Part shown: positions 14,063-32,934 of the stretch, piece by piece
Layout of the letters: the number at the start of each line of letters is the position of its first letter
Position numbering within the stretch: position 1 is the stretch's first letter
Assembly: GCA_963745835.1 (NCBI GenBank)
Contig: CAVUZH010000013.1
Location: 544,001 to 608,000, forward strand
DNA from: an uncultured delta proteobacterium
GTDB taxonomy: Bacteria > Desulfobacterota > Binatia > UBA9968
DNA: 64,000 nucleotides
Direction of reading: 5' to 3'
Position numbers and translations under genes: made by a program
The notes under the pieces: generated by a model
Database searches by the model: none
Seen by the model: only the letters and a program-made list of their open reading frames with translations
What the model was told of the DNA's origin: nothing

Positions 14063-14293
14063 ATGAAGACCGTGCAGATGACCTTGGATGAACAGCTGGT
14101 AAAGGCCGTGGACAGCGCCGCAAGGAAGTTGGGAACCACACGATCCGGCTTTACACGGGAAGCCTTGCGTTCCGCGCTCAAGGAAGTTCGCGTCAAAGAA
14201 TTGGAGTTGCAACACCGCGAAGGATACAAACGTAAGCCGGTTAAGCGCGGCGAGTTTAGCGAGTGGGAATCGGAACAGGTCTGGGGCGATTGA
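14063..14293 (+). CDS. Ribbon-helix-helix antitoxin
   Basis: MKTVQMTLDEQLVKAVD...TRSGFTREAL; overlaps the toxin start. Confidence 0.85.
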   Translation: MKTVQMTLDEQLVKAVDSAARKLGTTRSGFTREALRSALKEVRVKELELQHREGYKRKPVKRGEFSEWESEQVWGD

Positions 14294-14604
14294 TGAAGCG
14301 CGGGGAAGTTAGATGGTATGTGTTTTCCAGACCCGACAAGAAACGGCCAGTGCTCATTCTAACGAGAGACTCGGCGTTGGAGTTTCTCGGAGAAGTGACC
14401 GTCGCCCCTATTACAACCGTGATTCGCGATATTCCGTCGGAGGGCTTGTTGACCAAGATGGACGGAATGCCGAGGGACTGCGCCGTAAACTTTGATCATC
14501 TTCAAACCGTTTCTAAAGGAAAGATCGGTTCGCTCATTGCGACTTTAAGCTCGAGCAAGATGCAACAAATGCGGTCAGGCTTGCTCTTTGCGCTTGGCTT
14601 CTGA
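14293..14604 (+). CDS. PemK/MazF-family toxin
   Basis: MKRGEVRW...PDKKRPVLILTR...VTVAPIT; ATG at 14293. Confidence 0.9.
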   Translation: MKRGEVRWYVFSRPDKKRPVLILTRDSALEFLGEVTVAPITTVIRDIPSEGLLTKMDGMPRDCAVNFDHLQTVSKGKIGSLIATLSSSKMQQMRSGLLFALGF

Positions 14605-14621: not shown

Positions 14622-14674
14622 GCTCGGCGGATTTCGCGATCTATCAGCTGCTCAGCCGCAATGTTCTCGACCCC
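14622..14674 (+). repeat. SBP-gene fragment, copy 1 (internal 53 bp)
   Basis: 52/53 identical to 27440-27492. Confidence 0.85.
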
Positions 14675-14937
14675 TTCCTTCCAAAGAAAGTTTTCGAGAT
14701 GCACCGACTTCTGAGTCGCTTGAGTTCCCTCCAACAGCACGTCCAAAAGAAGCGCCGTTCTCCAGGACTTCGACGGAATTGCCAGGGGACGGATGTGCTG
14801 AGCGTCAGTCCGGCGAGCGAGGGAATCAGCTCATCGATCGGCGAACTACATTCAATGTGCAGCTTGGGATCACGGTGACGTCGAATCGACCAAATGACAA
14901 TCGATAGCAGCAATACCAGGCAAAGAAATGCCACCAC
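14671..14937 (-). pseudogene. Decayed duplicate of the 5' part of the PLD/cardiolipin synthase gene
   Basis: LLSIVIWSIRRHRDPKLHIECSSPIDELIPSLAGLTL nearly matches 12170-12430; contains an internal deletion and frameshift. Confidence 0.85.
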
Positions 14938-15000
14938 TATTCATCGAGATTTTACGCCATTCAGTCACTATAGAGAATGGACCCTTATCCCCTCTGATTC

Positions 15001-16317
15001 TTATCGATGCGAAGCCGCAATCTGATTGAGCCGCGATTGAATCTCGCGCTCCGGTAACCAGCGCCCACGCACCATCACGCCGGACCGGCGCGCGATATTG
15101 TCGATGTCCTCGAGGGGATTGGCATCGAGTAGGATCAGATCGGCGCGCTTCCCCACTTCTATCGTTCCAAAACTATCTTTCTCTTTGAGATATAGACCGA
15201 CATTGTAGGTTCCCGACCTGAGGATGTCGTACGGCTTCATCCCCGCATCCGCCATCCGTTTCATTTCGCGGTGAATCGAAAATCCCGGGACGCTGAAGCG
15301 CTGCGGCGCGTCGCTGCCCAACAGGATTTTCACGCCGCTATCGTGTAGCGCTTTGAGCAGGCGCATACGGTTCTGGATCACGGTGCGCGCTACGTCAGGC
15401 TTGAATTCGGAGTTCTTGAGGAGATTCTCCTGAGCGCTTGTCCACTGCTGGATCTGCTGCGGCGGCATGTATTTCAGCTCCGGGTAAGCACGCAGGGTGG
15501 CCAGATCTGCGGTTCCTCGGAGTGTTTCCCACAGAGCCATGGTTGGCACGACCCAAACGCCCGCCTCGCGCGACAGCTTGGCGATCTCTTGAAGCTTGGC
15601 GTCGGGCATGGGGCCCTTTTCTCCCTGCAGAAATTCGATATAGCCGTCGAGATGATCGAAGGTTTCCTGTCCGCTCTGGATCGCATGAAGGAGCCCGACA
15701 TCGGCCGGCACGTGGCCCGCAAAGCTTATTCCCACTTCCTTTGCGGTTCTCGCCATCGCGTCGTAATGATCCCGCGCCAGACCCGTAAGGACTTTCAGGA
15801 GGTCCCATCCTTCGCCCTTCTGTTGCCGGACAGTTTGTATCGCCTCTTCGGCAGACTTGATCGTCTTTCCACTGAAGGGAGGTCCAGCGAGATAAAGATT
15901 CGGCGCCATTAATTCGCCTCGCTTGGCTCTCTCTCGAAGATCGAGTTGCCCTGGCGCGCCCTGCATTCCTCGGACAGTTGTAACGCCATTGGCGATGTAC
16001 AGGAACAAGACCGCCTCGGTAAATTCCCGAGACTGAAGGGGTGAAGGAATATGTCCATGCATTTCGCCTAGGCCCGGCATTAGATATTTGCCGCGACCGT
16101 CGAGCGACAACGCTTTCTCCGGTACCTTGGTGTTTCCCGCTGGCCCCACAGCACTGATTCGGCCATCACGGATAACAACAGTCTGATTGTTTAGCAGCCC
16201 CTCCCGGTCCATTGGGACAACGTTGACGCCGATAAACGCAAGATCTTGGGCCGAGGATGGTTCGAGAGAAACGAAAAGCATCAAAGCCACACCAACGAGA
16301 CACAAACTCGGTTTCAT
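15001..16317 (-). CDS. Secreted amidohydrolase-family protein
   Basis: Signal peptide and the motifs LMPGLGEMHGH, GSDAP and GTIEVGKRADLILLDANPL. Confidence 0.88.
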   Translation of the reverse strand: MKPSLCLVGVALMLFVSLEPSSAQDLAFIGVNVVPMDREGLLNNQTVVIRDGRISAVGPAGNTKVPEKALSLDGRGKYLMPGLGEMHGHIPSPLQSREFTEAVLFLYIANGVTTVRGMQGAPGQLDLRERAKRGELMAPNLYLAGPPFSGKTIKSAEEAIQTVRQQKGEGWDLLKVLTGLARDHYDAMARTAKEVGISFAGHVPADVGLLHAIQSGQETFDHLDGYIEFLQGEKGPMPDAKLQEIAKLSREAGVWVVPTMALWETLRGTADLATLRAYPELKYMPPQQIQQWTSAQENLLKNSEFKPDVARTVIQNRMRLLKALHDSGVKILLGSDAPQRFSVPGFSIHREMKRMADAGMKPYDILRSGTYNVGLYLKEKDSFGTIEVGKRADLILLDANPLEDIDNIARRSGVMVRGRWLPEREIQSRLNQIAASHR

Positions 16318-16429
16318 GGGCCCCTCCGTTGAAACGCCTGCTTGAACGTACCATATATCATCACTGTCGTCCCGGGATACCCGGGGGACGCGGCATCTCG
16401 TTCTTGCGATCAGAAAATGGAGGTGGCCG

Positions 16430-16618
16430 GCATGCTCGGTACAGCATCAGGAAAGAACTACGGCAGTCGGTTTTTGACCGTAGTGTTTACCGTTCGTGCG
16501 AACCGGATTGGTGTGATCAGCGCGCGTCCGATGAGCAGAAGCGAGAAGAAAGTATATGAAAAAGAAAATTAAACCGGTGCCGAAGTTCAGAAACGAACAG
16601 CACGAGCGGGACTTTTGA
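16430..16618 (+). pseudogene. BrnT C-terminal half and truncated BrnA start
   Basis: RFLTVVFTVRANRIGVISARPMSRSEKKVYE (BrnT RIISAR motif) overlaps MKKKIKPVPKFRNEQHERDF*. Confidence 0.7.
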
Positions 16619-16657
16619 ATGCGAGGCAAGCTATGACTCGCAGGCGGCTTCCTCGGT

Positions 16658-16687
16658 TTGACGATTAATCCATTACCCCGGTAATCT
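16658..16687 (+). promoter_or_regulatory. Promoter/operator of the vapBC pair
   Basis: TTGACG-18 nt-TAATCT overlapping the palindrome attacc-cc-ggtaat. Confidence 0.5.
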
Positions 16688-16692
16688 AAGTT

Positions 16693-16956
16693 ATGGCATT
16701 AGCGCAATCAAAAGTTACGGCCCAGGGACAGATTTCTGTTCCGGCGAAAGTGCGACGAAAACTCGGTATCGGCCCAGGCTCGGTGCTGGAATGGGACGAA
16801 GAAGGTGACGTCGTGGTCGTGCGCAAAGCCGGCCGGTATACATCGGAAGACATTCATCGCGCGATCTTTCCGCGAGGGACACCGGCTTCGAAGAAGCTAG
16901 AAGACTTCGACAAATGCGTGCGGCGCTATATGAAGAAAAAACATGCGCGCCGTTGA
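16693..16956 (+). CDS. AbrB/MazE/SpoVT-family antitoxin (VapB)
   Basis: SKVTAQGQISVPAKVRRKLGIGPGSVLEW. Confidence 0.9.
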   Translation: MALAQSKVTAQGQISVPAKVRRKLGIGPGSVLEWDEEGDVVVVRKAGRYTSEDIHRAIFPRGTPASKKLEDFDKCVRRYMKKKHARR

Positions 16957-17322
16957 CACCAATGTCTTGGTCCGTCTGGTCACGCGCGACGATCGGAAGC
17001 AGGTCGCCGCCGCGGAATCATTCGTGAGTAAGGGGCGTGGGTGGCCACCTTGGTTCTCACGGAAGCGACATGGGTTCTTACAGCTGTGTACGACCTGAGT
17101 CACGCGGAGATTCCGACGGCCATCGAAATGCTTTTGCGTCATCGGGATCTTATCATTCAAGAGTCCGATAGCGTGGCCGCAGCACTCGAGCAGTATCGCA
17201 AGCGTCCGGCGTTGGGGTTCTCCGATTGTTTGATCCTAGAAACAGCGCGGAAAGTCGGCCATCTTCCGTTGGCAACCTTTGACCGGAATCTCTCGAAGCT
17301 CGATGGAGCCGAAGGACTGTAG
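16943..17322 (+). CDS. VapC PIN-domain toxin, frameshifted near 17033
   Basis: MRAVDTNVLVR from 16943 continues in another frame as VLTEATWVL...FSDCLI...ATFD; the break is at a G run. Confidence 0.8.
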
Positions 17323-17452
17323 CGCTGCGCAACGCGAATTTGTTTTTGCAAAATCAGCGCGAGATTAATGCTGACTTATCAGAGTGTTGAAAAAGCGGTC
17401 GTCGACTGGACGTTTGCCGCAAGAGCCCGAGGATAATCATCAGAAGTAAAAA
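17322..17452 (+). repeat. SBP-gene fragment, copy 2 (internally deleted)
   Basis: Matches 27739-27796 and then about 27960-28012; junction contains GAGTGTTGAAAAA. Confidence 0.8.
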
Positions 17453-17567
17453 CTGCCTCCAAAGCAAAACGTCAAAAGCTACAATTGACCGAAGGCCGGT
17501 CGTGCACTCAACGAAAGCTCACCATTCCAGGAAGTGGACGCCGCTGTGGTGAGAGTTCATGGTGGTG

Positions 17568-17861
17568 TTAGGCGGCCAATTTCACCGCGACTGAGACGCC
17601 AGCCTTTGCGCACAGGCCGACGAGGTAGTCCAGAGATAGCTTGTCAACCTTGTTGCGCGCGATCTCGGAGATGCGGGGCTGGACCACGCCAAGGCGCTTG
17701 GCGGCTTCCACCTGGGAAATTGCCTCACGGTCCATCCACTTACGGAGAGCTTCGGCCAGCTGGCAACGCAGGAGCATCACAGCCGCCTCGTGCGGTGGAA
17801 AGCCGAGATCAAGGAATACATTGTTTGCGCGCTTTACTTGCCGTGCTCGTTTCTTCTTCAT
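17568..17861 (-). CDS. XRE/HTH antitoxin (HigA-like)
   Basis: NVFLDLGF...SQVEAAKRLGVVQPRISEI...LSLDYL. Confidence 0.88.
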   Translation of the reverse strand: MKKKRARQVKRANNVFLDLGFPPHEAAVMLLRCQLAEALRKWMDREAISQVEAAKRLGVVQPRISEIARNKVDKLSLDYLVGLCAKAGVSVAVKLAA

Positions 17862-18178
17862 GAGTGCCTCCCGGTTAACTTGTAACGCTCTGCTGCCAAC
17901 TTAATGTCCGCCTGGGACGTCTTTCGGGTCTTCTTCTGAAAAGCGTGCAAGACATAAACCGCTTCTTCGAATTTGGCCACGTACACGACGCGAAACACCG
18001 GCGCCACCTCGTATGCGAATCTCATACGCTCCAGATCCAACGGTCGGAAGCGGCTTAAAGTCTGCTGGTTCACGCCCGACTTGCACCATAAACAACTCGT
18101 ATCCGGCTTGTCGACGCGCCAATCGGGAAAGGTCGCTAAGTCGCGACGAGCTGTCCCGAGAAAGCGGATCGGTTTCAT
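17858..18178 (-). CDS. RelE/HigB (Gp49-like) toxin with two compensating frameshifts
   Basis: MKPIRFLG..RRDL..FP, then ARRQAGYELFMVQVGREPADFKP..TVGSGAYEIRI, then FRVVYVAKFEEAVYVLHAFQKKT, split over two frames. Confidence 0.8.
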   Translation of the reverse strand: MKPIRFLGTARRDLATFPDWRVDKPDTSCLWCKSGVNQQTLSRFRPLDLERMRFAYEVAPVFRVVYVAKFEEAVYVLHAFQKKTRKTSQADIKLAAERYKLTGRHS

Positions 18179-18187
18179 TACAAATGA

Positions 18188-18216
18188 ATTATACGATTAT
18201 TCGTATATGCTTGCAA
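18188..18216 (-). promoter_or_regulatory. Sigma70 promoter with palindromic operator for the higBA-like pair
   Basis: TTGCAA-17 nt-TATAAT on the minus strand, overlapping the palindrome tatacga-ataa-tcgtata; ATG lies 9 nt downstream. Confidence 0.7.
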
Positions 18217-18326
18217 TCGCCCCACGAACCCCGAAGACAGCAACCGCCGATCTGAAAAGCTTGGTCGATAGATTATCGATATGATTTAGGAATTGGAACC
18301 GTCGGGGATTATCAACCAGCCATATA

Positions 18327-18406
18327 CGTGGTCGAAGAATGGATTTCCGTGGGAGCGTTTAGAGCGAAAGAAACAATCACCGCCAAGCCGCAACAGGTAA
18401 TCGATC
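18327..18406 (+). repeat. SBP-gene 3'-end fragment, copy 3
   Basis: gtggtcgaagaatggatttccgtggga...caccgccaagccgcaacag matches 27890-27965. Confidence 0.85.
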
Positions 18407-18493
18407 GAACTCAGACGGCATTGCGCCCGCTGCGGCGCGTTGGTATTTTGTTTCCGGCTCGGACGGCGATAAGCTGTCCTGACAGGAGAAGGG

Positions 18494-19330
18494 ATGTCGA
18501 TCTTTAAGACCACCGGTCTTGTCGCCGGCCATTACGAGTGCCGCTCCCTGGCGGAAACTCTGCCGGTCTTCACCGATCTATTGGCCATGGAGGTCGTCGA
18601 GCGGACGGCGAGCATAGCCATACTCAAGCACCCCAACACGGAGTGGCGCCTGATCGTACATGAAGGGGGACCCGACGCGCCGGAAAAGAGTTTCGACAAT
18701 CACTACGGCTTCCGCGTCGCCCACCATGGGGAGGTGGAAGCAGCCTGGAAACACCTCGAAGCCAACAAAGAGAAATACGGCCTCAGCAAGATCACTAAGC
18801 CGCAGAGCGCGCATTTCGCTTACTCGATCTACTTTCGCGAGCCCGGCGGCAACCACTTGGAAATCGAATATTACAATCCCGGCGGCGCGCAGCATGGCCG
18901 CGCCCACACCGCCGGCCATTGGAACAAGCCGCTCGCCGACGAGCGATTGTCCCAGCGCGGCTACCTGCCGCAAGCGTTCACTCACGGCACGCTGCAGTGC
19001 GACGACATCGAGCGCAGCCGGCAATTTTACACCGAGGTTCTCGGACTCGAGATCCTGGCGGGATTCAACAACGCCCAGTATATCAAGCACGCGGCGGCGC
19101 CCTGGTACATCGTCGTCTTGAAACGCAGCCCGCGGCAATATCTCGCGCCGGTAAACCGCTTCACTCTGCAAATGGATTCAGCCGCAGCAGTCGAGCAAGC
19201 GCACCGCGAATTCTCGATCAACGGCGCGACCGCCGGCATTACAGAACTCGGCAAGCTCGACGCCATTGACGGCAAAACCAGTTTTATCTTCAGCGACCCG
19301 GATAGGAACTGGTGGGAGCTAAACGCCTAA
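18494..19330 (+). CDS. Two-domain VOC/glyoxalase-family protein
   Basis: HYGFRV, SIYFREPGGNHLEIE, HGTL..FY.EVLGLE and FSDPDRNWWEL. Confidence 0.85.
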   Translation: MSIFKTTGLVAGHYECRSLAETLPVFTDLLAMEVVERTASIAILKHPNTEWRLIVHEGGPDAPEKSFDNHYGFRVAHHGEVEAAWKHLEANKEKYGLSKITKPQSAHFAYSIYFREPGGNHLEIEYYNPGGAQHGRAHTAGHWNKPLADERLSQRGYLPQAFTHGTLQCDDIERSRQFYTEVLGLEILAGFNNAQYIKHAAAPWYIVVLKRSPRQYLAPVNRFTLQMDSAAAVEQAHREFSINGATAGITELGKLDAIDGKTSFIFSDPDRNWWELNA

Positions 19331-20413
19331 TGAAAAACAAACACGGACTGCAAACCATCGTGTTTACTGTCTTTCTTCTGCTCGCGTGGTGGATCGTTTT
19401 GGCCCCCACGGCATTGGCCCAGACGCCATTCTATGAAGGAAAGAATCTTCTTCTTGTGAGCGGCACTGACGCGGGCGGTGCCGGCGATCTGCGCACGCGC
19501 GCAGTGATTCCGGTCTTGAAAAAACATATTCCCGGCCACCCCAGCCATCGTTATGCAGTACATGCCCGGCGCGGGCGGACGTAAGGCGGCCAATCACATG
19601 TACAAATCGGTTCGGCCTGATGGTTTGACGGTCGGCGCCATGATCACCGGCATGGTGCAGGGCACGATTTTCGGCGAACAAGACGTACTTTATGATCTCG
19701 ACAAGTTCATTTATCTCGGCTCCCATGCCCGCTATGCGCCCTATGCCTTTGTGACGCACAAGGCCGCGGGCTTCAACAGCCGGGAAACTTTGAGCGCGAC
19801 CCGCGGCGTGCGCATCGGCGCGCCGTCTGTCGGCCACAGCCTCTACACCATGGCCCGGCTGTTCGCCTACATGCTGGACATGAAAGAGCCGCGTTTGGTC
19901 ACCGGCTATACACCGCGGGAAATCGACTTTGCTTTAGAAAGGAACGAAATCGATGCGCGGGTGAGTATCCTGGACAGTTTGCTGACGCGCAATGCCCATT
20001 GGTTAGATAAAGATCTGGTGCATGTCCACGCGACCATGGATATCCCCAAGGGCTTCAAACACCCCGACCGCAGGCTCGCCAAACTCCCCGAGATCGAGGG
20101 TTTCGCCCGCTCAAACCAAGAACGCCGTCTCATCCAGCTTTTTCGCGGGGCGCGCGATACCGGTCAGCCTTTTGTGCTGCCGCCGGGCACGCCGGCGGAG
20201 CACGTTAAAATATTGCGGGAAGCCATGCGCAGAGTCTTCGCCGATCCGGAGTACAGCAAAGCCTACGAGAAACTCACTTCGGAGCCCGCTATGACGGTAA
20301 CCTGGGAGGAGTTCGAAACACAGCTGCGCGAGTTGCCGCGGGAAGCCGAGACCATCGATCTCTTCAAGCGGCTTTCCGGCCCGGCACCGCTGCCGGCCCG
20401 GCCGTCCCGGTAA
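19330..20413 (+). CDS. TctC/Bug-family solute-binding protein, frameshifted near 19545
   Basis: Signal peptide and KHIPGHP, continued in another frame by MQYMPGAGG..AANHMY...PDGLT and PPGTP. Confidence 0.8.
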
Positions 20414-20446
20414 CCACGCGCCGTTTACAACAAGAGTACTCTGATT

Positions 20447-20648
20447 CCGACCGCCGAGTGGTTCTATGCTCTCTAGCGCGAGCAGTTGAACCCCGATCTC
20501 GCGGTACCGGACTCGGCCGTCGAAGAATGGATTTCCGTGGGAACGTTTAGAGCAAAAGAAGATCACCGCCAAGCCGCAACAGGTCGTCGACTGGAAGTTT
20601 GCCGAAAGAGCCCGACGCTGATCAGTGAAATTAAAGAACTGCCCCCGA
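20447..20648 (+). repeat. SBP-gene 3'-end fragment, copy 4
   Basis: Aligns with 27814-28012, including the stop and about 25 nt downstream. Confidence 0.9.
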
Positions 20649-20744
20649 ACGGACTTCGCACGATGATCGGTGTCGTGTAACAGATCGGCGGGCTTTTGGA
20701 CCGGGATTTATATCACGGCCTGGGTCCTCGCCTAGGGGTATTAC

Positions 20745-21236
20745 TCACTCTTTCCGCACCGTAATTTCGTAGTCGCCACGGGTCTTGGATGCAAGCACTG
20801 AGACCATTATGTAGTACAGCTCGCCAGGACGGCTCTCAAAAGCAAGGGTGAGAGGTTGGTCCTCAGGATTTATGCCCGGGAGCAGGGTCACGCCCTCGCG
20901 CACCTGAGCAACCCTCTTCTCATTCTGATCATAAACGTCCACTGCCCCTTGAAAGCCGGCTTTAGAGCGCTTGCGTACAATAACCCGTGTTTTGGGGCTG
21001 GACGCGGTGAATTGGAAGAAATGCCGCTCTTGGCCCGGCACGAGCGAACCGCTCAGCGTTGCCCCTTCAGCGATTGGTTTTGCAGTAGTAATGCTCGTGT
21101 TAGAACCTGGCAGCGCTGGTGAGTCTGCGGCGGGGGACTGCGCCGGGCTCATGGAGCCAATAAGCGCCCCATTCAGCATCGCAATGGCCCAGACACATCG
21201 TCGAACACGTTGGGTGACATCCGTATAGCTAGGCGT
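20745..21236 (-). CDS. Stand-alone, probably exported copy of the TIR protein's C-terminal beta-sandwich (PPC-like) domain
   Basis: Last ~115 aa nearly identical to the end of 21385-22515. The frame extends upstream through a signal-like segment (RVRRCVWAIAMLNGALIG) to an ACG at 21236 after GGAGGT; the first ATG is at 21179. Confidence 0.65.
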   Translation of the reverse strand, partial: TPSYTDVTQRVRRCVWAIAMLNGALIGSMSPAQSPAADSPALPGSNTSITTAKPIAEGATLSGSLVPGQERHFFQFTASSPKTRVIVRKRSKAGFQGAVDVYDQNEKRVAQVREGVTLLPGINPEDQPLTLAFESRPGELYYIMVSVLASKTRGDYEITVRKE

Positions 21237-21384
21237 ATGTACCTCCGATCGACAATTTGTGGGTAATGCTAATCCACGTCATGCTATTGCAAGAACGCCC
21301 TACACGAACAGCGTTTTTCTTCAGAGCGTTACAAAGTTGCGCTTACCAGCCAGCTTTCAATGCATAGGACTACCTCATTATCAC

Positions 21385-22515
21385 TTACTCTTCCCGCACC
21401 GTAATTTCGTAATCGCCACGTGTCTTGGACGCAAGCACTGAGACCATTATGTAGTACAGCTCGCCAGGACGGCTCTCAAAAGCAACGGTGAGAGGTTGGT
21501 CCTGAGGACTTATGCCCGAAAGCAGGGACACGCCCTCCCGCGCCTGAGCAACCCTCTTCTCATTCTGATCATAAACGTCCACCGCTCCTTGAAAGCCGTC
21601 TTTAGAGCGCTTGCGTACAATAACCTTTATTTTGGGGCGCGCCGCGGTGAATTGGAAGAAATGTCGCTCTTGGCCTGGCACGAGCGAATCGCTCAGCGTT
21701 GTCCCTTCAGCGATTGGTTTTGCAGTAGTAATGCTTGTGCCTGACTCGGAAGAGGGAGCACGACGAAACATAAAGAATACGAAGGCTGAAACCAAAACAA
21801 TGGTAATAATACTTCCACCAACCCATAAACGAGTTTTTGAGAAGGAGAGGCTAGGAGAAGGACCTGGCGAGTCGTGATGCGTTGTAGTATGAGCGCCTTG
21901 GTCGCGTCGCTTTTGCCGCTCTGGCTGTTGCGCTCTTGCTGCTTCCTCCTGTGCGCGACTTTTTTCTTCTTCGATGCGCCTTCGGATCTCGTCGTCCGGT
22001 TTCAATCTGGTCGCTTCCTCAGCCCGCTGTCGTTCCTGTTGGCGGAGACGCTCTTCGTCTACCTTGCGGCGCTCTTCGGCTTCCCCAAGGCGTTGCTCTT
22101 CTGCTACGGTCGCCCCCGTAGAGCTCAGTCTAAGAATCGTATAGATGTCCTCGACAAGCCTTCGAAACTCTGAGAAGTCTTTTGAGCCATCCCAATTAAA
22201 CAAACTTGGTGTATGAAGTTCTTCAAATCTAAAAGGTAGTTCCACTTGTTGGATCGTAACGGGGACGAGCTTCTTGCGTTTCAATGCATGCGTTGCCTCG
22301 TCTTTTACGTATAGCGACTGCACGGAACGTTTGGACCACAACACAATGACGCACTTCGCTTCGTTTAATGCCTTCTCAATCACGTCATTAAACCGTTCAC
22401 CTGCCCGGAGCTTCGGGTCCCACCAGACAGTCCAGCCTTCACTTTCAAGTGCATTTGCAAGTTGTCTTGCTGTGGCTTGATCTTCTCGGTTATAGCTGAT
22501 GAATATGTCGCTCAT
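21385..22515 (-). CDS. TIR domain - charged coiled coil - TM helix - PPC-like ectodomain protein
   Basis: MSDIFISYNRED, VWWD and CVIVLWS...S.YVKDEA (TIR_2 with Glu retained); E/R-rich linker; TM LWVGGSIITIVLVSAFVFFMF. Confidence 0.85.
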   Translation of the reverse strand: MSDIFISYNREDQATARQLANALESEGWTVWWDPKLRAGERFNDVIEKALNEAKCVIVLWSKRSVQSLYVKDEATHALKRKKLVPVTIQQVELPFRFEELHTPSLFNWDGSKDFSEFRRLVEDIYTILRLSSTGATVAEEQRLGEAEERRKVDEERLRQQERQRAEEATRLKPDDEIRRRIEEEKSRAQEEAARAQQPERQKRRDQGAHTTTHHDSPGPSPSLSFSKTRLWVGGSIITIVLVSAFVFFMFRRAPSSESGTSITTAKPIAEGTTLSDSLVPGQERHFFQFTAARPKIKVIVRKRSKDGFQGAVDVYDQNEKRVAQAREGVSLLSGISPQDQPLTVAFESRPGELYYIMVSVLASKTRGDYEITVREE

Positions 22516-22678
22516 TGACGGTACACAGGATTGAGAACAAAAACGCCAAAGACTCGTAGGGTGGTTAATATGGTGGGCTGTCCCGGCGTGTCTGCCGATT
22601 TCCCGTCTTATACTTCGCCGAGAGAGAAAAAATCAACGAGTAAGGCGTCTCCCTAAAACCGATCACGCAGATCGACAA

Positions 22679-22897
22679 TGGAAAAACTCTTGAAGCTCGA
22701 CCGCCGAGCGGTTCTATGCTCTCTACCGCGAGCAATTTAACCTCGATGTCACGGTACCCGACTCCGTCGTCGACGAATGGATTGCGGTGGGAACGTTTAG
22801 AGCAAAAGAAAAAATCACCGCCAGGCGCAACAGGCCGTCGATTGGACGTTGCCGAAAAAGCGCGCCGCTGATCATCAAAGTAAAGAACCGGCCCCGA
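22679..22897 (+). repeat. SBP-gene 3'-end fragment, copy 5
   Basis: Aligns with 27797-28012; shares an 8-nt deletion with copy 4. Confidence 0.9.
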
Positions 22898-23005
22898 GGC
22901 ACAACGTCACAAAGCAACTTGACCCGAAGCAGTCGCTCTTAGGCTTTGTGATACCACTTATGATCGACAATAGGTCAATGACTCATGCCCGACCCCTGCC
23001 ACTGA

Positions 23006-24073
23006 TTAGCCTTTGCGGCCGATTTCTCGGAGCAGCTTCTCCCATTGTTCCATCGATTGTTCGTACTGGGCCATCGACATGCCCGCTTCGGGGTACCAAA
23101 GTTTGTAGGGCGTAGGCTTCAGAGGACCGCCATAGTTCAGGTCGCCGAGGATCTTTGCCCCTTCCGGGCTGAGAAGAAAATCGGCCATCAGCACCGCGGC
23201 ATGCGGCCGCGCCGCCTGCGCCGTGATCGCTACGCCGCCGGTGTTGGTCGGCACGACATCCATCGGTACCCAATCCACCGGCGCTCCTTTGCCTTTCACC
23301 TCGATGGCATGGTCGCGGAAGATCGTCGGCGCCAAGGGAACTTCACCGGAAACCACCAGGTCCGCCATCGCTCGACCGGATACGGAGTGCAGAACTACCT
23401 CCTGCGCCTTGAGTTTCTTCACGAACTCTTCACCTTTAAGCTTGAGCATCGCGCCGATCGCTCTCACTCCGGTTTCGTTGGAAACGAAGCCGATTTTCCC
23501 CTTGAGCTCGGGTTTCAAAAGATCGTCGTACTTTTTTGGTACGGCGGACGTCGGGATAAGCGTCGTGTTGTAGCCGACGCCGCTGTATGTCTCGCGATCG
23601 ACCGCCCAGTAGACGAGTCCTCGGCCGGCGTCTTCTTTTGTGTTGGCAGGATATTTTTTCAAATGGGGCGAGGTGTAGGCGGCAAGCAGTTTATTTTCGC
23701 GCAGATAAGTCAGCGGCGGCACCGTCGTTTCCAAAACGTCGACGAGGATCTGCTTGGCCTGGGCCTCGGCCGTGATCCGGGTCATGATATCGGTGCTCGT
23801 ACCCCGATAGGTCTCGACTTTGATCCCCGGATACTTTGCTTCGAAGCCGTTGGCGAGATCTTTGTATGAGCTCCCCGCCAGCGAGGTGTACCAAACGACC
23901 TTGCCTTCAGCTCTGGCGCCCGCGACAAGCCGCTGCTCGCGATCGGCGCCGGCGTAAGCCGCGAGCTCGGCCGTGGAGACCGGTTTCTTGCTTTGTGCCC
24001 ACGCGCCGGCAATCCACTGATGCGTGAACAAAAAAACTGCAATGGACAATATTTTCAGTCGGGTAAATCCCAT
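23006..24073 (-). CDS. ABC solute-binding protein (Fe3+/thiamine/polyamine-like class)
   Basis: Signal peptide, A.AEGKVVWYTS, YNT..IP...P..YDDLL.P.LKG and A.PHAAVL..DFLLS.EG. Confidence 0.85.
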   Translation of the reverse strand: MGFTRLKILSIAVFLFTHQWIAGAWAQSKKPVSTAELAAYAGADREQRLVAGARAEGKVVWYTSLAGSSYKDLANGFEAKYPGIKVETYRGTSTDIMTRITAEAQAKQILVDVLETTVPPLTYLRENKLLAAYTSPHLKKYPANTKEDAGRGLVYWAVDRETYSGVGYNTTLIPTSAVPKKYDDLLKPELKGKIGFVSNETGVRAIGAMLKLKGEEFVKKLKAQEVVLHSVSGRAMADLVVSGEVPLAPTIFRDHAIEVKGKGAPVDWVPMDVVPTNTGGVAITAQAARPHAAVLMADFLLSPEGAKILGDLNYGGPLKPTPYKLWYPEAGMSMAQYEQSMEQWEKLLREIGRKG

Positions 24074-24278
24074 AACCCCCCCCGGGGGTAGCCGATGGAC
24101 GAGGCGAGCGGCAAATCTTTGGCCGTTCGCGGTTAAAAATCTTCGAATAGCATAAGCGTCAGATGCAGGTCAACGCGACCGGCGTTTGTTCGATCACTGA
24201 GCGCTAACGACTGGGTTGACACAGTCAACGAAACTCATTTAGAGTCGATCATGTTTAGATTACAATCGAGGAGGTCGT

Positions 24279-25142
24279 ATGATCGTCGAGAACCATGCCA
24301 AGGGACAAATCTCGTGGCCCAATAAAAATCGAGTTGCGGTCGCCATCACTTTCGATTTTCAGGGTGGCGAGCCGGTGCGGCCGGGACCGAACGGAAAGTT
24401 GAACAACGAGGATTACGCGGAAGGGGAATATGGACCCAAGACGGGCATATGGCGGATCCTAAGCATGCTCGACGAAGTCAACGTCAAGACCACGTTTCTG
24501 ACGTGCGGCGGGATCGCGGAAAGATACCCCGACGCGATGAAAGCGATCGTCGAGCGCGGACATGAGGTCGCGGGACACGGCTACCACCATGAAATTGCGC
24601 GCGACCTGACGCGACAAGAAGAAAAGGATTGCATCCGGCGGACCACGGACATGCTCATGAAGCGAACCGGAAAGCCTCCGATCGGTTGGCGGACATGCAC
24701 GCAAAGTAACGATACGGTAGAACTGCTGATGGAAGAAGGATACGTGTGGAACAGCAATTCGTTCGCGGACGATCTCCCGTTCGTGTGGGAAAACGGCGAG
24801 TCGCGGCTGGTCGAGCTGCCGCGCCAGCCGTTTGGCGACGGCCGGCTCTATGGACATCAGAACCGGGCCGGCGATCATCCGGACAATGCCTTGCGCTTGT
24901 GGCAACGCTTCTTTAACGACCTTTACGCCGAATCGGCGACCGCACCGATGTTCACGACCTTCCAACTGCATCCGTATGTGTCGAGCCGGCTCGGTAGAAC
25001 CAGCGCGCTCAAAGAAATGATCGAATACATGAAGGGCCACGAAGGCGTGTGGTTCGCCAGCGGCATAGAGATCGCCGAATGGTGGCTCGAGCAAAACTTT
25101 TCAGAGAAACCCGCGCCGCTGCGCATCGCCGCGGTTTCCTAA
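24279..25142 (+). CDS. Polysaccharide deacetylase family (CE4, PuuE-like)
   Basis: ITFDF, EYG...G..RIL, GHEVAGHGYHH, P.GWR and LHP. Confidence 0.85.
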   Translation: MIVENHAKGQISWPNKNRVAVAITFDFQGGEPVRPGPNGKLNNEDYAEGEYGPKTGIWRILSMLDEVNVKTTFLTCGGIAERYPDAMKAIVERGHEVAGHGYHHEIARDLTRQEEKDCIRRTTDMLMKRTGKPPIGWRTCTQSNDTVELLMEEGYVWNSNSFADDLPFVWENGESRLVELPRQPFGDGRLYGHQNRAGDHPDNALRLWQRFFNDLYAESATAPMFTTFQLHPYVSSRLGRTSALKEMIEYMKGHEGVWFASGIEIAEWWLEQNFSEKPAPLRIAAVS

Positions 25143-25467
25143 TTAGAACACCCCATCCGCGGATGCCGAGCTGAAATTTCTCTGCGTCAAGTCGGCATCC
25201 GCGTGGTCCCATCTCACCCCTCGCCCTCTCGCGGAAATGTCTTTTCCGCCGACCGCTGAATCTGAAATGTCACAGACGTGACTCCTAAGGCCGTTCCGTT
25301 ATGAGACAGCGCCGAGTTCTAATCAGCGTCGTAACCGACGACGCCACCCGCCCAGCGGTTCTGCCGATCATAGCTTGGCAGCCGCTGAGCGAAAGAACAG
25401 CATCAGGACGAAAGTCTGGAACTGTCATACTTTTACTTTGAGCTCCATTAGCCAGGTAGAGCCGTCG

Positions 25468-25914
25468 TTAGCTGGCTTTTCGTACTTCTTTGTTTTTAGC
25501 CGCTTCAAGCTCGCGACCTAACTGATCAAGAGCCTCAGCATTCATGAGTTTTCGTATCTTGGGAAACATTTTTCCCTCTTCCTCTTCTTCCGCATGATGC
25601 TCTACGTTTTCCATTAACACTTTCAGTTTAGGTTCAAACTTCTCGCTATCTGCGGTCAGATTTTCCATCTCTCGGAGGAGAGTCTTTACCTGCTTGTGCT
25701 CCTCGAGAGATTCAAGCACCATATCTTTTAACTCTTCGTTTTTTGCTACGGCCGGATAGAAAACCGTCTCCTCAATATGCGTATGAGTTTCTAGTTCCGT
25801 TTTAATCTTTTCAAAAAGTTGCAACTGCTGTTTCTTGTTTTCGCTTCCTTCTGCCTTTTCGAATAGTTCTTTCACCGTCTTATGGTCTGTCTTAAGAAGT
25901 TCTAAAGCATCCAT
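25468..25914 (-). CDS. Hemerythrin/HHE cation-binding protein
   Basis: LLKTDH..V..LF, HTHIEETVFYP, EEH and VEHHAEEEE. Confidence 0.9.
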   Translation of the reverse strand: MDALELLKTDHKTVKELFEKAEGSENKKQQLQLFEKIKTELETHTHIEETVFYPAVAKNEELKDMVLESLEEHKQVKTLLREMENLTADSEKFEPKLKVLMENVEHHAEEEEEGKMFPKIRKLMNAEALDQLGRELEAAKNKEVRKAS

Positions 25915-25972
25915 TTACTTTCCTCCAAAAAAAGGTCGTTATTAATATTAGATACGAACTAAGTCCTAAAGG

Positions 25973-26004
25973 TGCGAGTCCGCCCATCTAGCTGCGGACT
26001 CGCA
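25973..26004. terminator. 11-bp intergenic hairpin (terminator or mRNA stability element)
   Basis: Perfect inverted repeat tgcgagtccgc / gcggactcgca; weak U-tract. Confidence 0.45.
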
Positions 26005-26015
26005 ACAAAGCCCGC

Positions 26016-26555
26016 CTAAACGCGGCTTTCTTCCTGCTTGGGAACGCCTTTCTCTTCGCTGTACGAGATGTCGTGGGCGCCGGCACGTTCAAAAATATCC
26101 TTTGCGCGCTTTACTTCATCGCTATCTTCCGAGTGCACTGAAATCAGGATGTTGCCCTCTTTGATTTTTCCCTCGTATCGCTTGGCCTCATACTCAGGAA
26201 TGCCCATGCCCACGAGCGCTCCGGTTAGCCCGCCGACGGCGGCGCCTATACCCGCACCGGCCAGAGCGGCCATGATCGGTCCGGCAGCTATAAACGGGCC
26301 GACGCCAGGAATGGCCAAGGCCCCAATGCCCACCAGCCATCCCAAAGCTCCTCCTAAGACTCCCCCGGTGCCTGCTCCTGTAGCGGCCCCCTCCGGTGCC
26401 TTAGTGTGCTGTTCGTGAGCAAAATCCTTCGTTCCCGATTTGTCAGGGAACAGGACCGAGATATCATTGTTGGAAAAGCCCGCAGCCTTCAGCTCTTGGA
26501 CTATCCTTTCGGCTTGGCTTTCATTATCACTTAAACAAAAAACTGATTTTGACAT
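26016..26555 (-). CDS. General stress protein-like membrane protein with glycine-zipper helices
   Basis: GA.TGGVLGGALGWLVGIGALAIPG.GPFIAAGP and GMGIPEYEAKRYEG. Confidence 0.8.
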   Translation of the reverse strand: MSKSVFCLSDNESQAERIVQELKAAGFSNNDISVLFPDKSGTKDFAHEQHTKAPEGAATGAGTGGVLGGALGWLVGIGALAIPGVGPFIAAGPIMAALAGAGIGAAVGGLTGALVGMGIPEYEAKRYEGKIKEGNILISVHSEDSDEVKRAKDIFERAGAHDISYSEEKGVPKQEESRV

Positions 26556-26572
26556 ACTTTTCTCCTTTAAAT

Positions 26573-26968
26573 TTAGTTTGCGATCTCCAATTGGTTATCG
26601 ACACTTTTTACACCAGCAATCTGCTGCGCTTTGGCACCGATATTAGTTTTCTCTTGCTCACTCTGCACCGGCCCACGTAGCGTCACTGTGCCATCATTCG
26701 TGATGATCTTTACGTTCTTGCCATTCGTGGAGACGGAATCGTCCGCTGTGACAGCCTGCCGGACGTTTTGTGAAATCGTCCGGTCCGCCTCACTCTCAGA
26801 TTGATCGCCCGGGGTCTTTGTCGCATCGTTACGATCTCGGACGTTACGGCCACTATTATCTGCCGCTATGTCGGCGGTTTGACTCGGCTGGTCATTCTTC
26901 GACACCTCGTTCTTGCTACACCCGACTACTAGAAACGCTAGAACAAAACCTAAAGCACTTGTTCTCAT
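26573..26968 (-). CDS. BON-domain lipoprotein (OsmY-like)
   Basis: Lipobox LVVGC and D..I...VR...NVKIITNDGTVTLRGPV...GVKSVDNQL. Confidence 0.88.
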   Translation of the reverse strand: MRTSALGFVLAFLVVGCSKNEVSKNDQPSQTADIAADNSGRNVRDRNDATKTPGDQSESEADRTISQNVRQAVTADDSVSTNGKNVKIITNDGTVTLRGPVQSEQEKTNIGAKAQQIAGVKSVDNQLEIAN

Positions 26969-27352
26969 AAAACCTCCTTCGTTTAAGATTTTTGTTTCTC
27001 CGAAATTGCTGATTTCCGAAAATCGTCCTTAGTAAAACCACTGCCTAACACCCCTCGATTTGGGAGTCTGTAGATCGAGCGGTTTGTCACTCCTTGCTGA
27101 CAACTTCTGCCCATACCTGGAAGGAGAATGGGGTGGACGCAAGTCGAAACGCTTGCGCGAATCGGCAGTATCATCTTTTCTAAGCGTCAGCGAGATTCGT
27201 CAACCCTGGTCAGGAGGGGTTGTGGTTCGAGCAGGTAGTGTAAGTCTTACGAGATGGAGTGCCTACGTGCTCCTTCCCTTTAAGCAGTTAATCCGCTTTG
27301 TCAATGGTTAGATTCGTTCTTTCTTCTTCGCCCGAGCAGATTCCCGTACAAA

Positions 27353-28012
27353 TCCAGCGCTATGCGATCATCTCGCGTCCCGACATCGCCAGCGTCAAGG
27401 ATCTCAAAGGGAAAAGGCTGGCGATCAACACCTTCGGCAGCTCGGCGGATTTCGCGATCTATCAGCTGCTCAGCCGCAATGGTCTCGACCCCAACAAAGA
27501 TGTCACGCTGCTATCGATCCCCGGCAGCCCGGACGCCCGTTTCGCCGCGCTGATCGGAGGCTCGGTCGAGGCCACCGTGGTGAACAGCCCGTTCGAATAT
27601 CGCGCCGAGCAAGAAGGCTTTAAGGTATTGCTCTCGATCAAAGAGACCGCCGAGTTCGTCAAAATCCCCATCAACGGGCTGAGCACGTGCCAGCGAAAAA
27701 TTGACAGAGAGCCCGATGAATTCGTGCGCATGCTGCGGGCGCTGCGCAACGCCGATTTGTTTTTGCAAAATCAGCGCGAGATCAGTGCCGGGTTAGTGGA
27801 AAAACTCTGAAGCTCGACCGCTCAGTCGCGGAGCGGTTCTATGCTCTCTACCGCGAGCAGTTTGATCCCGATCTCACGGTACCCGACTCCGTGGTCGAAG
27901 AATGGATTTCCGTGGGAACATTTAGAGCAAAAGAAAAAATCACCGCCAAGCCGCAACAGTCATCGATTGGAGGTTTGCCGAAAAACCCCGACGCTGATCA
28001 TCAAAAGTAAAA
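27353..28012 (+). pseudogene. 5'-truncated NitT/TauT-type ABC solute-binding gene (longest copy, copy 6)
   Basis: I.SVKDLKGKRLAI..FGS..D...GLDPNKDV...R.AAL.GG.V; frameshifts near 27808 and 27959; C-terminus ...EEWISVGTFRAKEK...DWRFAEK. Confidence 0.85.
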
Positions 28013-28312
28013 AGCCCTGACCACGGCTGAACCGAAAATTCCCTGCGCTGGAGGTTAACCGGCTAGTTTCATCGCTTCCGCGGCGCACTTTTAAACTTGC
28101 CTAACTCTAATACGACGTATTGGTCTTTTTTTGCATCGATACAGATCGCTTGGTCTAGGAGCGTCGGAGCGCGAGCTATCTCAGATCATCACGACTACCG
28201 AGCCGCATAGCCCGACGGTTGTTCACTTCCCAAGCAACTTGACAGTCTTTAACAGGTTTCGTTAGAAGGATCTCAATCACTGCTTCTCGTGTTTTTTCGT
28301 GGCAGGTTCATT

Positions 28313-29068
28313 ATGAGCTCCACTACCATCAGTTTAATCGCGCTCGTGTGCATTTTTGGCGGCGCACTGATTGGCATCCTGCTTCATACGATCCTGCCTG
28401 AGCATCATCTCAGTTCCGACTCAAAAGACATCGTCAAGCTCGGCGTGGGGCTGGTCGGAACTATGGCAGCCCTTGTTCTGGGCCTACTGGTGGCGGCGGC
28501 CAAGGGCGCTTACGATGCGCAGAGCGCGGAGCTGACACAGATATCGGCCAACATCGCTGCGCTCGACCGCGTCTTGGCCAATTATGGACCTGAGACCAAG
28601 GAGATTCGCGATTTGTTGCACGGCGCCTCCGCGCGCATTCTCGATCAGCTGTGGGGTAATGACAGTCACAGCGCGTTCCTAAGCACTCCGGTATCCGCCG
28701 CTGGTGAAGTTCTTTACAACAAAATTCAGGCGCTCTCGCCGCAGAATAACACGCAGAGCGCGCACCAGGGCCAAGCCTTGAGTATCGTGATGGATACCGG
28801 AAGGACTCGCTGGTTAATGTATGCTCAGGCTACGACTTCGGTTTCCATGCCGCTCTTGATCGTACTGGTGCTTTGGCTCACTGTGATCTTCATCAGTTTC
28901 GGTCTGCTTGCGCCCTTTAACGCTACGGTTGTTTCCAGTTTGTTCGTGTCCGCGCTGTCGGTAGCCGGCGCAATCTTCTTGATCCTAGAGATGTATACCC
29001 CTTACACGGGAGTCATTCAGATCTCCAACGCTCCGCTGCGCGCCACCTTGGTGCATCTTGGCAAGTAA
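28313..29068 (+). CDS. DUF4239/bestrophin-like membrane protein
   Basis: LPEHHL...SKD.VKLG.GL..TMAALVLGLL and AIFLILEM..PY.G.I.IS..PL. Confidence 0.75.
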   Translation: MSSTTISLIALVCIFGGALIGILLHTILPEHHLSSDSKDIVKLGVGLVGTMAALVLGLLVAAAKGAYDAQSAELTQISANIAALDRVLANYGPETKEIRDLLHGASARILDQLWGNDSHSAFLSTPVSAAGEVLYNKIQALSPQNNTQSAHQGQALSIVMDTGRTRWLMYAQATTSVSMPLLIVLVLWLTVIFISFGLLAPFNATVVSSLFVSALSVAGAIFLILEMYTPYTGVIQISNAPLRATLVHLGK

Positions 29069-29069
29069 C

Positions 29070-29517
29070 TCGCCAATCCGTGCCGCTCACGCCTTCAGGG
29101 CGCCGGAACTGGTTGCGGGGAGTGGATCGGTTGGCGAATGGTTTGCGGTGAAATCCCAGCGGCGACGCAGGATTGGAGAGTCAACTGATGAGCGGATTTT
29201 GGGCAGCGGAGCATTTGTAAAGCGTGTTCTAAAAGAAGCAGATGCGCGGACACTCCGGCAAAACGCCTTCAAGAAAACCAAACGCTATGCGGAGCGTGTC
29301 GTTGCCGCGGCCTGCAAGAAAGACGGCATATCGCTAACAGAACTCCGAAGCGGGAGTCGCCGTGGGAAACTGCCCGCCGTGAGAGTGAAGATCGTTCAGG
29401 GGCTAGTGGAGGATTACGGCGTGCCCACCGCCGAAGTCGCTCGCCAAGTGGGTATCTCGACATCTGGAGTTTCAAAGATTCTGACACGAAATTTGTCCAG
29501 CTAGTCAACAGCGTCCC
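29070..29517 (+). pseudogene. C-terminal fragment of a RAYT/Y1-like transposase with HTH
   Basis: RAPELVAG, DERILGSGAFV..VL, L.ELRSGSRR and AEVARQVGISTSGVSKIL; followed by gtcaacagcgtccc. Confidence 0.65.
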
Positions 29518-29648
29518 TAATCGCCACGACTGGTCAAGCTGCCGGGAAACGTGAGTGCCGGTGAGTGGTCACGGCGAATACCTAGGAAAAAAACGCGGAC
29601 TGATCGACTATGGACCAGTGATGGGAGAGTTGAAGACCGCTGCTCGTT

Positions 29649-30016: not shown

Positions 30017-30120
30017 CTATTGGCTTTTGCCTCACCGGACTTGTTGCGAGCGTTTTCGCATTCACCTAATTAGTTGCGAACAAAAGCAGCCCTGTACGAT
30101 TGGAACGCCCCATTGAGCTC

Positions 30121-31137: not shown

Positions 31138-31419
31138 TCGTCGCGACCCTCGGTTCCTTGCATTCAATTGTGATTGCCGATCATGACGGGGAACAGTTGT
31201 TCCAGGATGACTAGCAGCACCGCCAGCTAACTGGAAATGGGCACCGGCGTCAATAGCCGCTGCCCATCGCCGCGCGGCCACGGGTGCAACGCGTTGAAGA
31301 AAGCAGAAATGTTGATTTTGGAAAGCGCAAGGTCGATAACGGTACGTCGAAGAACGTAGCTGGCAGGAGCACCTGAGAAGGTCAGCGATCCGGGGTCACT
31401 CATGAAAAGCTTGTCAAGG

Positions 31420-32690: not shown

Positions 32691-32934
32691 GCTGCACCTC
32701 CTTTAGGCTTAGGCGACTCCTCACAGAGTCAGCCTGGTATAATGTTGGTCCATTAGAGACCGTCACCGCCCAATTTGCGAGGTGCAGCTCACAACATCTG
32801 CTTTTCATTTAATCAAATCTTTTGTTGACAATTTAGGTCGTCGTTGGTCAGGCCTTTTACTTTTGATGTTCATCGTTCATGGGACAAGATTTCAAGTCAC
32901 CCCATACCTGCAGCGGCAGCAGCGACGAAATGGG

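Follow-up and report, generated by a model that had tools for sequence, protein, structure and literature searches.

A row of transporter gene ends with downstream joints located at a solo TIRYT end in a Candidatus Binatia genome

Pieces of a single transporter gene, all pointing the same way, punctuate a run of unrelated accessory genes in a genome of Candidatus Binatia. The stretch of DNA considered here, the window, spans 64 kb (positions 544001-608000 of contig C13) of the genome that holds it, G000, which amounts to 7.28 Mb in 25 contigs and is rated 97% for completeness and 9.3% for contamination. The pieces, hereafter stubs, are 3′-end fragments of one NitT/TauT-type (NMT1) gene for a substrate-binding protein (SBP), and they alternate with toxin-antitoxin pairs and other cargo (Table 1). 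A sequence-only reading of the window had placed six of them there, all on the plus strand, and sequence comparison within the window and the genome confirms each. Their matches are far beyond chance, with BLAST E-values ranging from 1e-7 to 1e-62 against the 7.28-Mb genome. Searching the whole genome added a seventh plus-strand copy at C13:628722-629052, 21 kb past the window (about 84.7 kb in window coordinates), and a sole further homologue, an intact 70% paralogue on contig C3. All seven copies are co-oriented inside 70 kb, which refutes a scatter in random orientation of the kind known for miniature inverted-repeat transposable elements. Such elements have paired terminal repeats, a constant length and a dispersed distribution; here the repeat is one-sided and the copies measure 53-680 nt.

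The array is not a product of faulty assembly as far as can be judged from independent data. Short-read contigs of independent runs, with 0-7 other letters, bridge the right joints of copies 1 and 6 and both joints of copies 3 and 5 (the joints among the matches listed), and two co-oriented stubs stand on a single contig both in contig C441 of the congener G004 and in the metagenome contig L050. Misassembly, the objection that the sequence-only reading had wished to see checked on reads spanning the junctions, is therefore unlikely, and the fragments are real. Frameshifts in vapC (at 17029) and in tctC (near 19545) are missing from some short-read contigs and may for this reason be assembly errors or alleles. 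The comparisons below use 14 stubs: seven from G000, two from G004, one from a second congener, G002, and those of the metagenome contigs L049 (one), L050 (two, the second cut off at the contig end) and L052 (one). Viral contigs gave no match, and RNA runs contain only a fraction of 0.09-0.19 of the words.

The right ends of the stubs are less uniform than first described. Instead of stopping 20-35 nt past the stop codon, they spread from about 25 to about 70 nt beyond it: 25 nt in copy 6, which covers about two thirds of the SBP gene, about 40 nt in copy 4, and about 60-70 nt in copies 2, 5 and 7. Copy 3 breaks off about 65 nt short of the stop codon, and copy 1 is a 53-mer from the middle of the gene. 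What holds of the original claim is a shared constant end, and this end is a terminal inverted repeat (TIR; proteins with a Toll/interleukin-1 receptor domain are called TIR-domain proteins throughout). The 8-nt deletion said to be common to copies 4 and 5 is certain in copy 5; copy 4 begins just ~6 nt upstream of it, so that its share in the deletion is possible, yet unproven.

To judge by its sequence, the conserved right end is the solo TIR of TIRYT elements, Y1-HUH transposase-like genes of subclass 2.1. The ends of these elements read GGGG[AT][CG]A[CG] (PMC3733652; PMC6006769), and the tail of the stubs is the reverse complement of this consensus. G000 has 12 Y1_Tnp matches, with inverted repeats reading outward ...CTGACCCC, ...CTGTCCCC or ...GCGTCCC, and two of its intact Y1 proteins carry a C-terminal HTH or DnaA_C domain, as in subclass 2.1.2 (PMC6006769). 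A matrix was built from the 14 distinct TIRs that flank these 12 matches; it is not blind to the tip, because its training sites were chosen with the core pattern. It scores the tail of copy 7 at 15.6 bits (per-position p 7.6e-7), copy 6 at 13.0, copy 5 at 11.6 and 10.2, copy 4 at 9.8 and copy 2 at 7.8, against 4.5 at most on the opposite strand. A second matrix, made from the elements of relatives, is weaker at the joints (6.8 for copy 6, 6.5 for the second TIR of copy 7, 3.8 for that of copy 5). Copy 7 matches the tip consensus exactly; the tips of copies 2, 4, 5 and 6 are decayed. The TIRs of the tail are arranged in tandem, as TIR1 and TIR2, with tips 31 nt apart. With one mismatch allowed, the 19-mer of copy 7 occurs 21 times in 90 family genomes, against none for a reversed control, and a Y1 gene lies on its inner side at 7 of the 21 loci. 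Neither a Y1 gene nor a facing left TIR was found within the stubs, which are not whole TIRtrons; whole ones stand elsewhere in G000 (e.g. C13:630847-631881, C2 and C20). Three mechanisms had been offered for the array, namely homology-facilitated recombination during natural transformation, a trans-acting recombinase, and HUH/RAYT activity. The last gains direct support from the fact that the stub tail is a TIRYT end; the rest of that claim is treated below as a proposal.

The tips have a further peculiarity. In relatives, a second TGACCC lies within 45 nt outside 14 of 43 first tips (13 of the 31 loci with a tip) and never on the inner side, for a background of 0.8%. Short tandem duplications of 8-36 nt that span the tip, noted in L060, L063, L064, L065, L073, L103, L106, L108, L110, L112 and L116, are possibly footprints of repeated cutting and rejoining. 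A row of five co-oriented TIRYT copies of ~745 bp each, mostly frameshifted, lies at C13:681041-696041. Two more general rules for TIRs were considered and dropped: in G000 a position just past a stop codon is no common trait of solo TIRs (1 of 79 sites, permuted matrices giving 0-7, with open reading frames, ORFs, of at least 220 aa only), and a replication-strand bias (105:149, against 69:103 for the reversed matrix) shows no excess over reversed or permuted matrices.

It is with respect to this TIR that the downstream joints are placed. Measured from the TIR1 tip, ten of the 12 different right joints lie between -2 and about +40 nt (the TIR2 tip being at +31), whereas the 12 distinct left joints are scattered across ~550 nt of the gene (27345-27890). 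When copy 1 is set aside, 10 of 11 right joints share a 45-nt span, against at most 4 of 11 left joints (Fisher p 0.024, a post hoc value obtained with copies that are not independent). Six stubs stop within ~15 nt of the TIR2 tip. The right joint of copy 1, GACCCC, resembles a TIR tip and is fused through a 4-nt microhomology to the duplicated 5′ part of a cardiolipin synthase gene. The left joint of L052 falls exactly on a TIR tip (11.9 bits). TIR tips as a rule for left joints were nevertheless rejected: only L052 is clear, copy 4 is weak (5.5 bits) and the other 12 of 14 rows are negative.

The stubs, 84-95% alike, give a star tree with one of nine inner branches supported, and the derived sites that they share yield no nested tree. 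Their substitutions with respect to the stub consensus are distributed 39/26/62 over the three codon positions, in favour of the third (p 0.0004). Their source is a protein cluster of 96 members, P0008, to which the C-terminus of the L049 stub is 96% identical. Eight of the 15 members listed are 3′ pieces of 39-123 aa, and the residue variants D[S/A]VV and N[Q/E]RE, present in full-length proteins of the cluster, come back among the stubs. A full-length protein, P0128, runs through a frameshift into residues that match the translated TIR1 tail. We infer that the stubs descend from several intact alleles already carrying the TIR, and the plurality of source alleles has moderate support. The intact anchor itself is lost from G000: none was found there, and its native M16-peptidase locus on C18 is devoid of dienelactone hydrolase and SBP. 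In other genera the intact gene stands behind M16 peptidases and dienelactone hydrolase, and among the 90 family genomes the closest intact genes, 86% identical to P0008, belong to another genus. A TIR follows the stop at 4 of 14 such intact loci (7-19 bits), the best one being from another TIR family. In L117 and L118 (genomes G073 and G056) a TIR of a different family follows the intact SBP stop. Two small ORFs behind the TIR of L117 are presumably a toxin-antitoxin pair. No stub row with the L117 3′ end was found in G073, G056, G082, G079 or G045.

Relatives differ in the order and content of the modules at the stubs, as G004 and metagenome contigs such as L050 demonstrate, and the identical gene order that would have spoken against unit-wise change is not what they have. 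G004 reads as the end of relA, a stub, the BON module, a long stub that begins like copy 6, and finally the sequence found to the right of copy 4 in G000. Because this long stub pairs the left of copy 6 with the right of copy 4, with which it has two derived sites in common, a crossover is located within the repeat. In G000, L050 and G004 the BON module comes after a stub that has both TIRs, and the DNA between the TIR2 tip and the module amounts to 2.4 kb in G000, an unrelated 0.55 kb in L050 and nothing in G004. In all three the BON module keeps company with the copy-6 stub, and it alone keeps its stub in three genomes or contigs. A fixed cassette made of cargo and stub, as the analogy with an integron had implied, is contradicted by vapBC, VOC+tctC, higA and SBP+deacetylase, which occur in relatives with other neighbours and free of stubs. 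In contigs of two further studies, an end resembling that of copy 4 is connected with the bestrophin side (20636/20641 to 28119/28123; end positions only). A joint of 17349 to 27768 was not used as evidence of a 10-kb deletion, as it may be a longer copy-2 allele. The cardiolipin synthase gene is single-copy in G004, where it neighbours the amidohydrolase gene, so that ~2.5 kb (a hypothetical ORF, mazEF and copy 1) and the 268-bp duplicate were gained in G000, with copy 1 closing the gain. The duplicate looks like an insertion-duplication, and short-read contigs that skip its region occur. The segments 27727-38336 of the window and C13:628722-634897 run in parallel, each with a stub, a TIRYT piece, a second TIRYT left end and a DJ-1/PfpI gene (97%); the genes between these landmarks differ.

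Table 1. Coordinates of the stubs, their cargo and comparable rows (window coordinates unless a contig of G000 is given)
Position	Strand	Feature	Basis or remark
14063..14604	+	RHH antitoxin and PemK/MazF toxin pair	left neighbour of copy 1; domain matches
14622..14674	+	copy 1, 53-nt mid-gene SBP piece	98% to copy 6; sequence match, short-read bridged
14671..14938	-	duplicate (268 bp, 86%) of the cardiolipin synthase/PLD 5′ end at 12168-12433	sequence match
15001..17322		cargo: amidohydrolase (-), broken brnT/brnA remnant, AbrB/MazE-type antitoxin and PIN toxin (vapBC)	
17322..17494	+	copy 2, internally deleted stub (17322-17371 and 17397-17494)	decayed TIR1 17446-17460, TIR2 17478-17490
17568..18178	-	cargo: HigB-like (Gp49) toxin and HTH_37 antitoxin	domain matches
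18327..18405	+	copy 3, 79-nt stub stopping before the stop codon	without TIR
18494..20413	+	cargo: VOC/glyoxalase and TctC-like protein	
20448..20662	+	copy 4, stub	TIR1 20631-20646
20745..22515	-	cargo: TIR_2-domain protein (21385-22515), its C-terminal portion duplicated (20745-21179)	duplicate 92%
22679..22935	+	copy 5, stub with 8-nt deletion	TIR1 22880-22895, TIR2 22910-22925
23006..25142		cargo between TIR2 tip and BON module: SBP (-) and polysaccharide deacetylase (+)	
25327..27340	-	hemerythrin, YflT-like and BON module	
~27345..28022	+	copy 6, longest stub, frameshifted, stop 27995-27997	ends in TIR1 (28009-28022)
28310..29068	+	bestrophin-like protein (cargo downstream of copy 6)	
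29102..29519	+	3′ half of a TIRYT (Y1 HUH) gene with right TIR	97% to C13:630847-631881
32854..32876	-	solo TIR of the copy-6-tail family	behind a glycosyltransferase gene, no SBP linkage
C13:666704-687294		rlpA 3′-end row, variable left ends	TIR-ended tails, intact first copy kept
C20:48067-74011		amidohydrolase 3′-end row, variable left ends	TIR-ended tails
C24:320-327k, C16:91-103k, C18:209-214k, C15:7-32k, C14:357-444k		co-oriented gene-end rows	TIR-free

Some of the cargo had been labelled too generously. The supposed pair of TIR-domain proteins is reduced to the larger one, which has the domain, its shorter neighbour matching no Pfam family; in the amidohydrolase module vapBC and the amidohydrolase were found, and brnT is a weak partial match under the Pfam cut-off. 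The claimed absence of an integrase and of attC sites agrees with what was found: no credible attC came up in a scan of 12-30 kb, and C13 has no PF00589 match within ~140 kb of the window. The window does hold an intact-looking IS110 transposase ORF (31602-32690) and two Y1 transposase remnants (29102-29519 and 37144-37578); neither a tRNA gene nor an Rfam match was found in the 64 kb. The IS110 transposase is single-copy in G000, with a solo TIR ~170 nt upstream, and in G002 the stub's TIR2 tip is where another IS110 begins (L032, near 3550). The idea that IS110 had inserted into a TIR of the window was rejected in view of an unbroken TIR at 32854-32876 and of uninformative join scores. A hairpin repeat of ~145 nt (9615-9761; -40.6 kcal/mol as RNA) stands directly before a TIR at 9761-9776; it has more than 45 copies over the contigs, in both orientations, and is absent at the matching site of G004. 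Further repeats of the window comprise an antitoxin 5′ piece (77%; 4471-4583 and 16672-16785), an intergenic direct-repeat pair (81%; 43037-43212 and 48400-48584) and tandem paralogue pairs at 49965-54694 and 58401-60254, which we take to be molybdoenzyme-like and of the metallo-beta-lactamase fold, respectively.

Because selection on an intact gene could also put breakpoints just past its stop codon, the other gene-end rows of G000 were compared. Among 14 local co-oriented families, three have one-sided TIRs and 11 no consistent TIR. The SBP array is consequently not a stand-alone system, since gene-end rows occur without a TIR in those 11. TIR ends of at least 7 bits are found for 4 of 6 in the SBP row, 2 of 5 in the rlpA row and 3 of 5 in the row of the C20 amidohydrolase end, against a null of 5% and none of 16 left sides. 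The shared tail reaches the TIR in each: ~+25 to +70 nt past the stop in the SBP row, ~+150 nt in the rlpA row, up to a TIR near +170, and likewise up to the TIR in the C20 row. In TIR-free rows the tails end at the stop or scatter. The intact anchor stands first in four other rows of G000 (rlpA, C24, C16 and C18), and each anchor family stays in its own region. Genome-wide, of the 752 local direct-repeat ends, 19 bear an outward TIR, where shifted positions give 4.1 +/- 2.1, a modest excess in a test from which the C19/C15 paralogue rows and high-copy repeats were left out. A high-copy family on C19 was considered as an attC array and rejected, as it consists of whole paralogues of an ABC substrate-binding protein in tandem, about 40 of which line up at C19:381-484k. 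The high-copy family at C15:238-270k, at first sight like an attC array, was excluded from the comparison.

Integron cassette arrays hold accessory and toxin-antitoxin genes in a row, with related repeats between them, and the present array resembles them in separating unrelated genes of this sort by related repeats. Here, however, the cargo comprises several genes, is largely encoded on the opposite strand and is independent of the repeat. An integron-like array, as first proposed, is discarded: there is no intact IntI and no attC, and most cargo genes do not travel with the stub as a unit. None of 14 TIGR02249 matches reaches the cut-off for IntI, although short remnants on C14 cannot be excluded, and a simple core-site scan of 12-30 kb, made without a covariance model, gave one weak site (-7 to -9 kcal/mol), visible on both strands and not at a stub.

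Closer parallels are found among the elements to which the TIR belongs. Solo, dimeric and grouped TIR repeats have already been reported for TIRtrons or TIRYT (PMC3733652) and for TnpA-Y1 subclass 2.1, group 2.1.2 (PMC6006769), and the likeness extends to the same 19-mer flanking Y1 genes in relatives and to intact Y1 genes with HTH or DnaA_C in the genome. Subclass 2.1 is the second largest TnpA-Y1 group, in 14.9% of strains (PMC6006769), and in its number of duplicates the TIRYT group exceeds most other groups of RAYTs (PMC5581495). In contrast to what the pertinent passages of the TIRtron papers describe, the TIR here faces away from the end of its host gene, is copied with 80-680 nt of it and marks the joints of modules; those passages mention no captured gene ends, no cargo arrays and no activity assay. 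Like additive islands (PMC4898812), the array has gene blocks that vary in number and order at a single site, every block bearing a directly repeated copy of the anchor's end. It departs from what is described there in that the anchor is a transporter gene, not one for tRNA or tmRNA, that left ends vary, that there is no integrase and that the anchor is lost; variable blocks at one anchor are present, a constant att core and a tRNA or integrase are not. Single-crossover or homology-facilitated recombination (PMC3240628) and merodiploids (PMC3784515) likewise duplicate gene ends at variable length without a site-specific enzyme; unlike in those laboratory events, there are seven copies here and the downstream joint follows the TIR. 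IS91/ISCR elements have the HUH chemistry, one fixed end and variable adjacent DNA in common with the stubs, but IS91-type elements are described with oriIS and terIS, no TIRs, and a transposase of their own (PMC13181058); the stubs carry no transposase. We found no description of arrays of gene end and TIR in the literature searched, which misses most subscription papers and supplements, no occurrence of "TIR" or "2.1" in the one relevant TnpA-REP paper found after 2019, and no functional test of subclass 2.1 proteins in the literature searched. The feature itself is real: a gene-end array of the additive kind, with downstream joints that keep to a solo TIRYT end.

How could such a row arise? 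We regard as probable, though only just, an additive variable island with joints made of the SBP 3′ end and a solo TIRYT end, formed in two stages. An SBP allele family bears one or two outward TIRYT TIRs directly behind its stop, and the joints with new DNA lie at or just past their tips; TIRYT proteins encoded elsewhere in the genome and acting in trans would be the likely cutters, and strains would therefore vary in the DNA that follows the TIR. A fragment from a foreign strain, with gene end, TIR and cargo, might then be trimmed, circularised and integrated by one RecA-type crossover, which would duplicate the gene end at variable length, displace older cargo downstream and so leave co-oriented stubs. 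Stubs may finally recombine with one another, as in the one case seen, reshuffling or deleting modules with no need of a dedicated integrase. There is a precedent in Escherichia coli, where trimmed and recircularised DNA entered by a single crossover with gene-end duplications of 109-950 bp (PMC3240628). Natural transformation is a possible entry route: merodiploids made by transformation have been reported (PMC3784515), and comEC and dprA are present in G000, where comEA gave no match above the cut-off. The original proposal, repeated capture of cargo behind the end of an anchor gene, thus survives in part, in that the stubs are anchor 3′ ends and the content varies; the fixed cassette finds no support, and G000 holds no intact anchor.

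Several observations weigh against this two-stage account. The literature searched holds no report of TIRYT cleaving a TIR, so that the joining at the tips is a positional association only. Stub rows form without any consistent TIR in 11 of 14 families, 10 of the 19 TIR-bearing repeat ends come from the SBP array itself, and distant repeats have no TIR excess (7 of 1988, against 8.7). Most stub TIRs are decayed, and in G000 just 1 of 64 pattern tips has a micro-duplication. Right ends cannot be traced past the longest shared tail, at which they are censored, and the metagenome stubs were ascertained through a 21-mer lying 80-100 nt upstream of the stop. The star tree may partly reflect missing signal, because the stubs are short, and P0008 and P0128 are proteins only, with no DNA context. 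Finally, neither an empty site, with both flanks of a stub adjacent, in relatives nor a circle was observed.

Another explanation would have host recombination alone at work: stubs would come from integration by single crossover, from merodiploids and from deletions in a tolerant region, the TIRs would be passive remains of an old TIRYT insertion behind the gene, and right ends would cluster only through selection for an intact gene with a short tail. It draws support from the TIR-free rows with an intact first anchor (C24, C16, C18), from the homology of cargo with relatives, which also ends at stop codons, from laboratory precedents without a transposase (PMC3240628; PMC3784515), and from the 97% pieces shared by the parallel segments that lead from copies 6 and 7 to DJ-1. 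We still find it doubtful, given a shared tail that reaches the TIR 25-170 nt past the stop in three families, six stubs ending so near the TIR2 tip, micro-duplications that gather outside TIR tips only, and intact orthologues in another genus with a TIR of another family at the gene end (L117, L118). At the other extreme, TIRYT proteins would be trans-acting single-strand "integrases" of solo TIRs, attaching or exchanging cargo at the tip, while homologous recombination in the neighbouring gene end would carry the new block from strain to strain; the two would constitute an HUH-based capture system at the SBP, rlpA and amidohydrolase anchors, which the sequences make thinkable and which we consider rather unlikely.

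The HUH enzyme might also have moved the stubs themselves, a solo TIR with variable inner DNA being copied to nearby sites between existing genes, as happens with IS91 when termination fails; the stubs would then be non-autonomous insertions. One fixed and one variable end, 12 left neighbours and cargo independent of the stub are what one-ended transposition would leave, and it is known in IS91-family HUH elements (PMC13181058). Yet the copies are confined to 70 kb in a single orientation and anchor families stay regional, no empty site was found in relatives, left ends show no common secondary site, stubs sample different intact alleles, and TIRs show no strand bias beyond composition, all of which makes this route improbable. 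A classical additive island, in which the SBP 3′ end would hold an att site used by a trans-acting integrase of the tyrosine or serine type, is very improbable: a site-specific crossover would give a constant left end, not one varying over ~550 nt, the constant side is the TIRYT end, and no integrase lies in or near the array (the nearest PF00589 match on C13 is at 754684). This is so even though G000 has 13 PF00589 matches (12 above cut-off), a split resolvase and, on C3, a classical tRNA-Ser row with integrase remnants, and although repeats of the target gene do mark additive islands (PMC4898812). That strains merged in metagenome assembly produced the row is hardly credible; the contamination rating and the cargo frameshifts missing from short-read contigs might hint at it, but the divergence of the copies (84-94% alike), the independent contigs bridging joints and the two stubs each of G004:C441 and L050 say otherwise.

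Be that as it may, the locus offers natural substrates and products: a solo TIR close to perfect, ten joints independent of one another at its tips, the DNA between one tip and the BON module in three versions, and the micro-duplications at tips of relatives. Should the tip be an enzyme-made joint, this would explain how accessory genes build up and change places in large soil genomes with no integron or integrase taking part. If it is not, the array remains a plain natural example of gene ends duplicated in a row, as met elsewhere in laboratory crosses and at tRNA islands. The HUH capture reading, were it true, would give the orphan subclass 2.1 a cellular role in Binatia.

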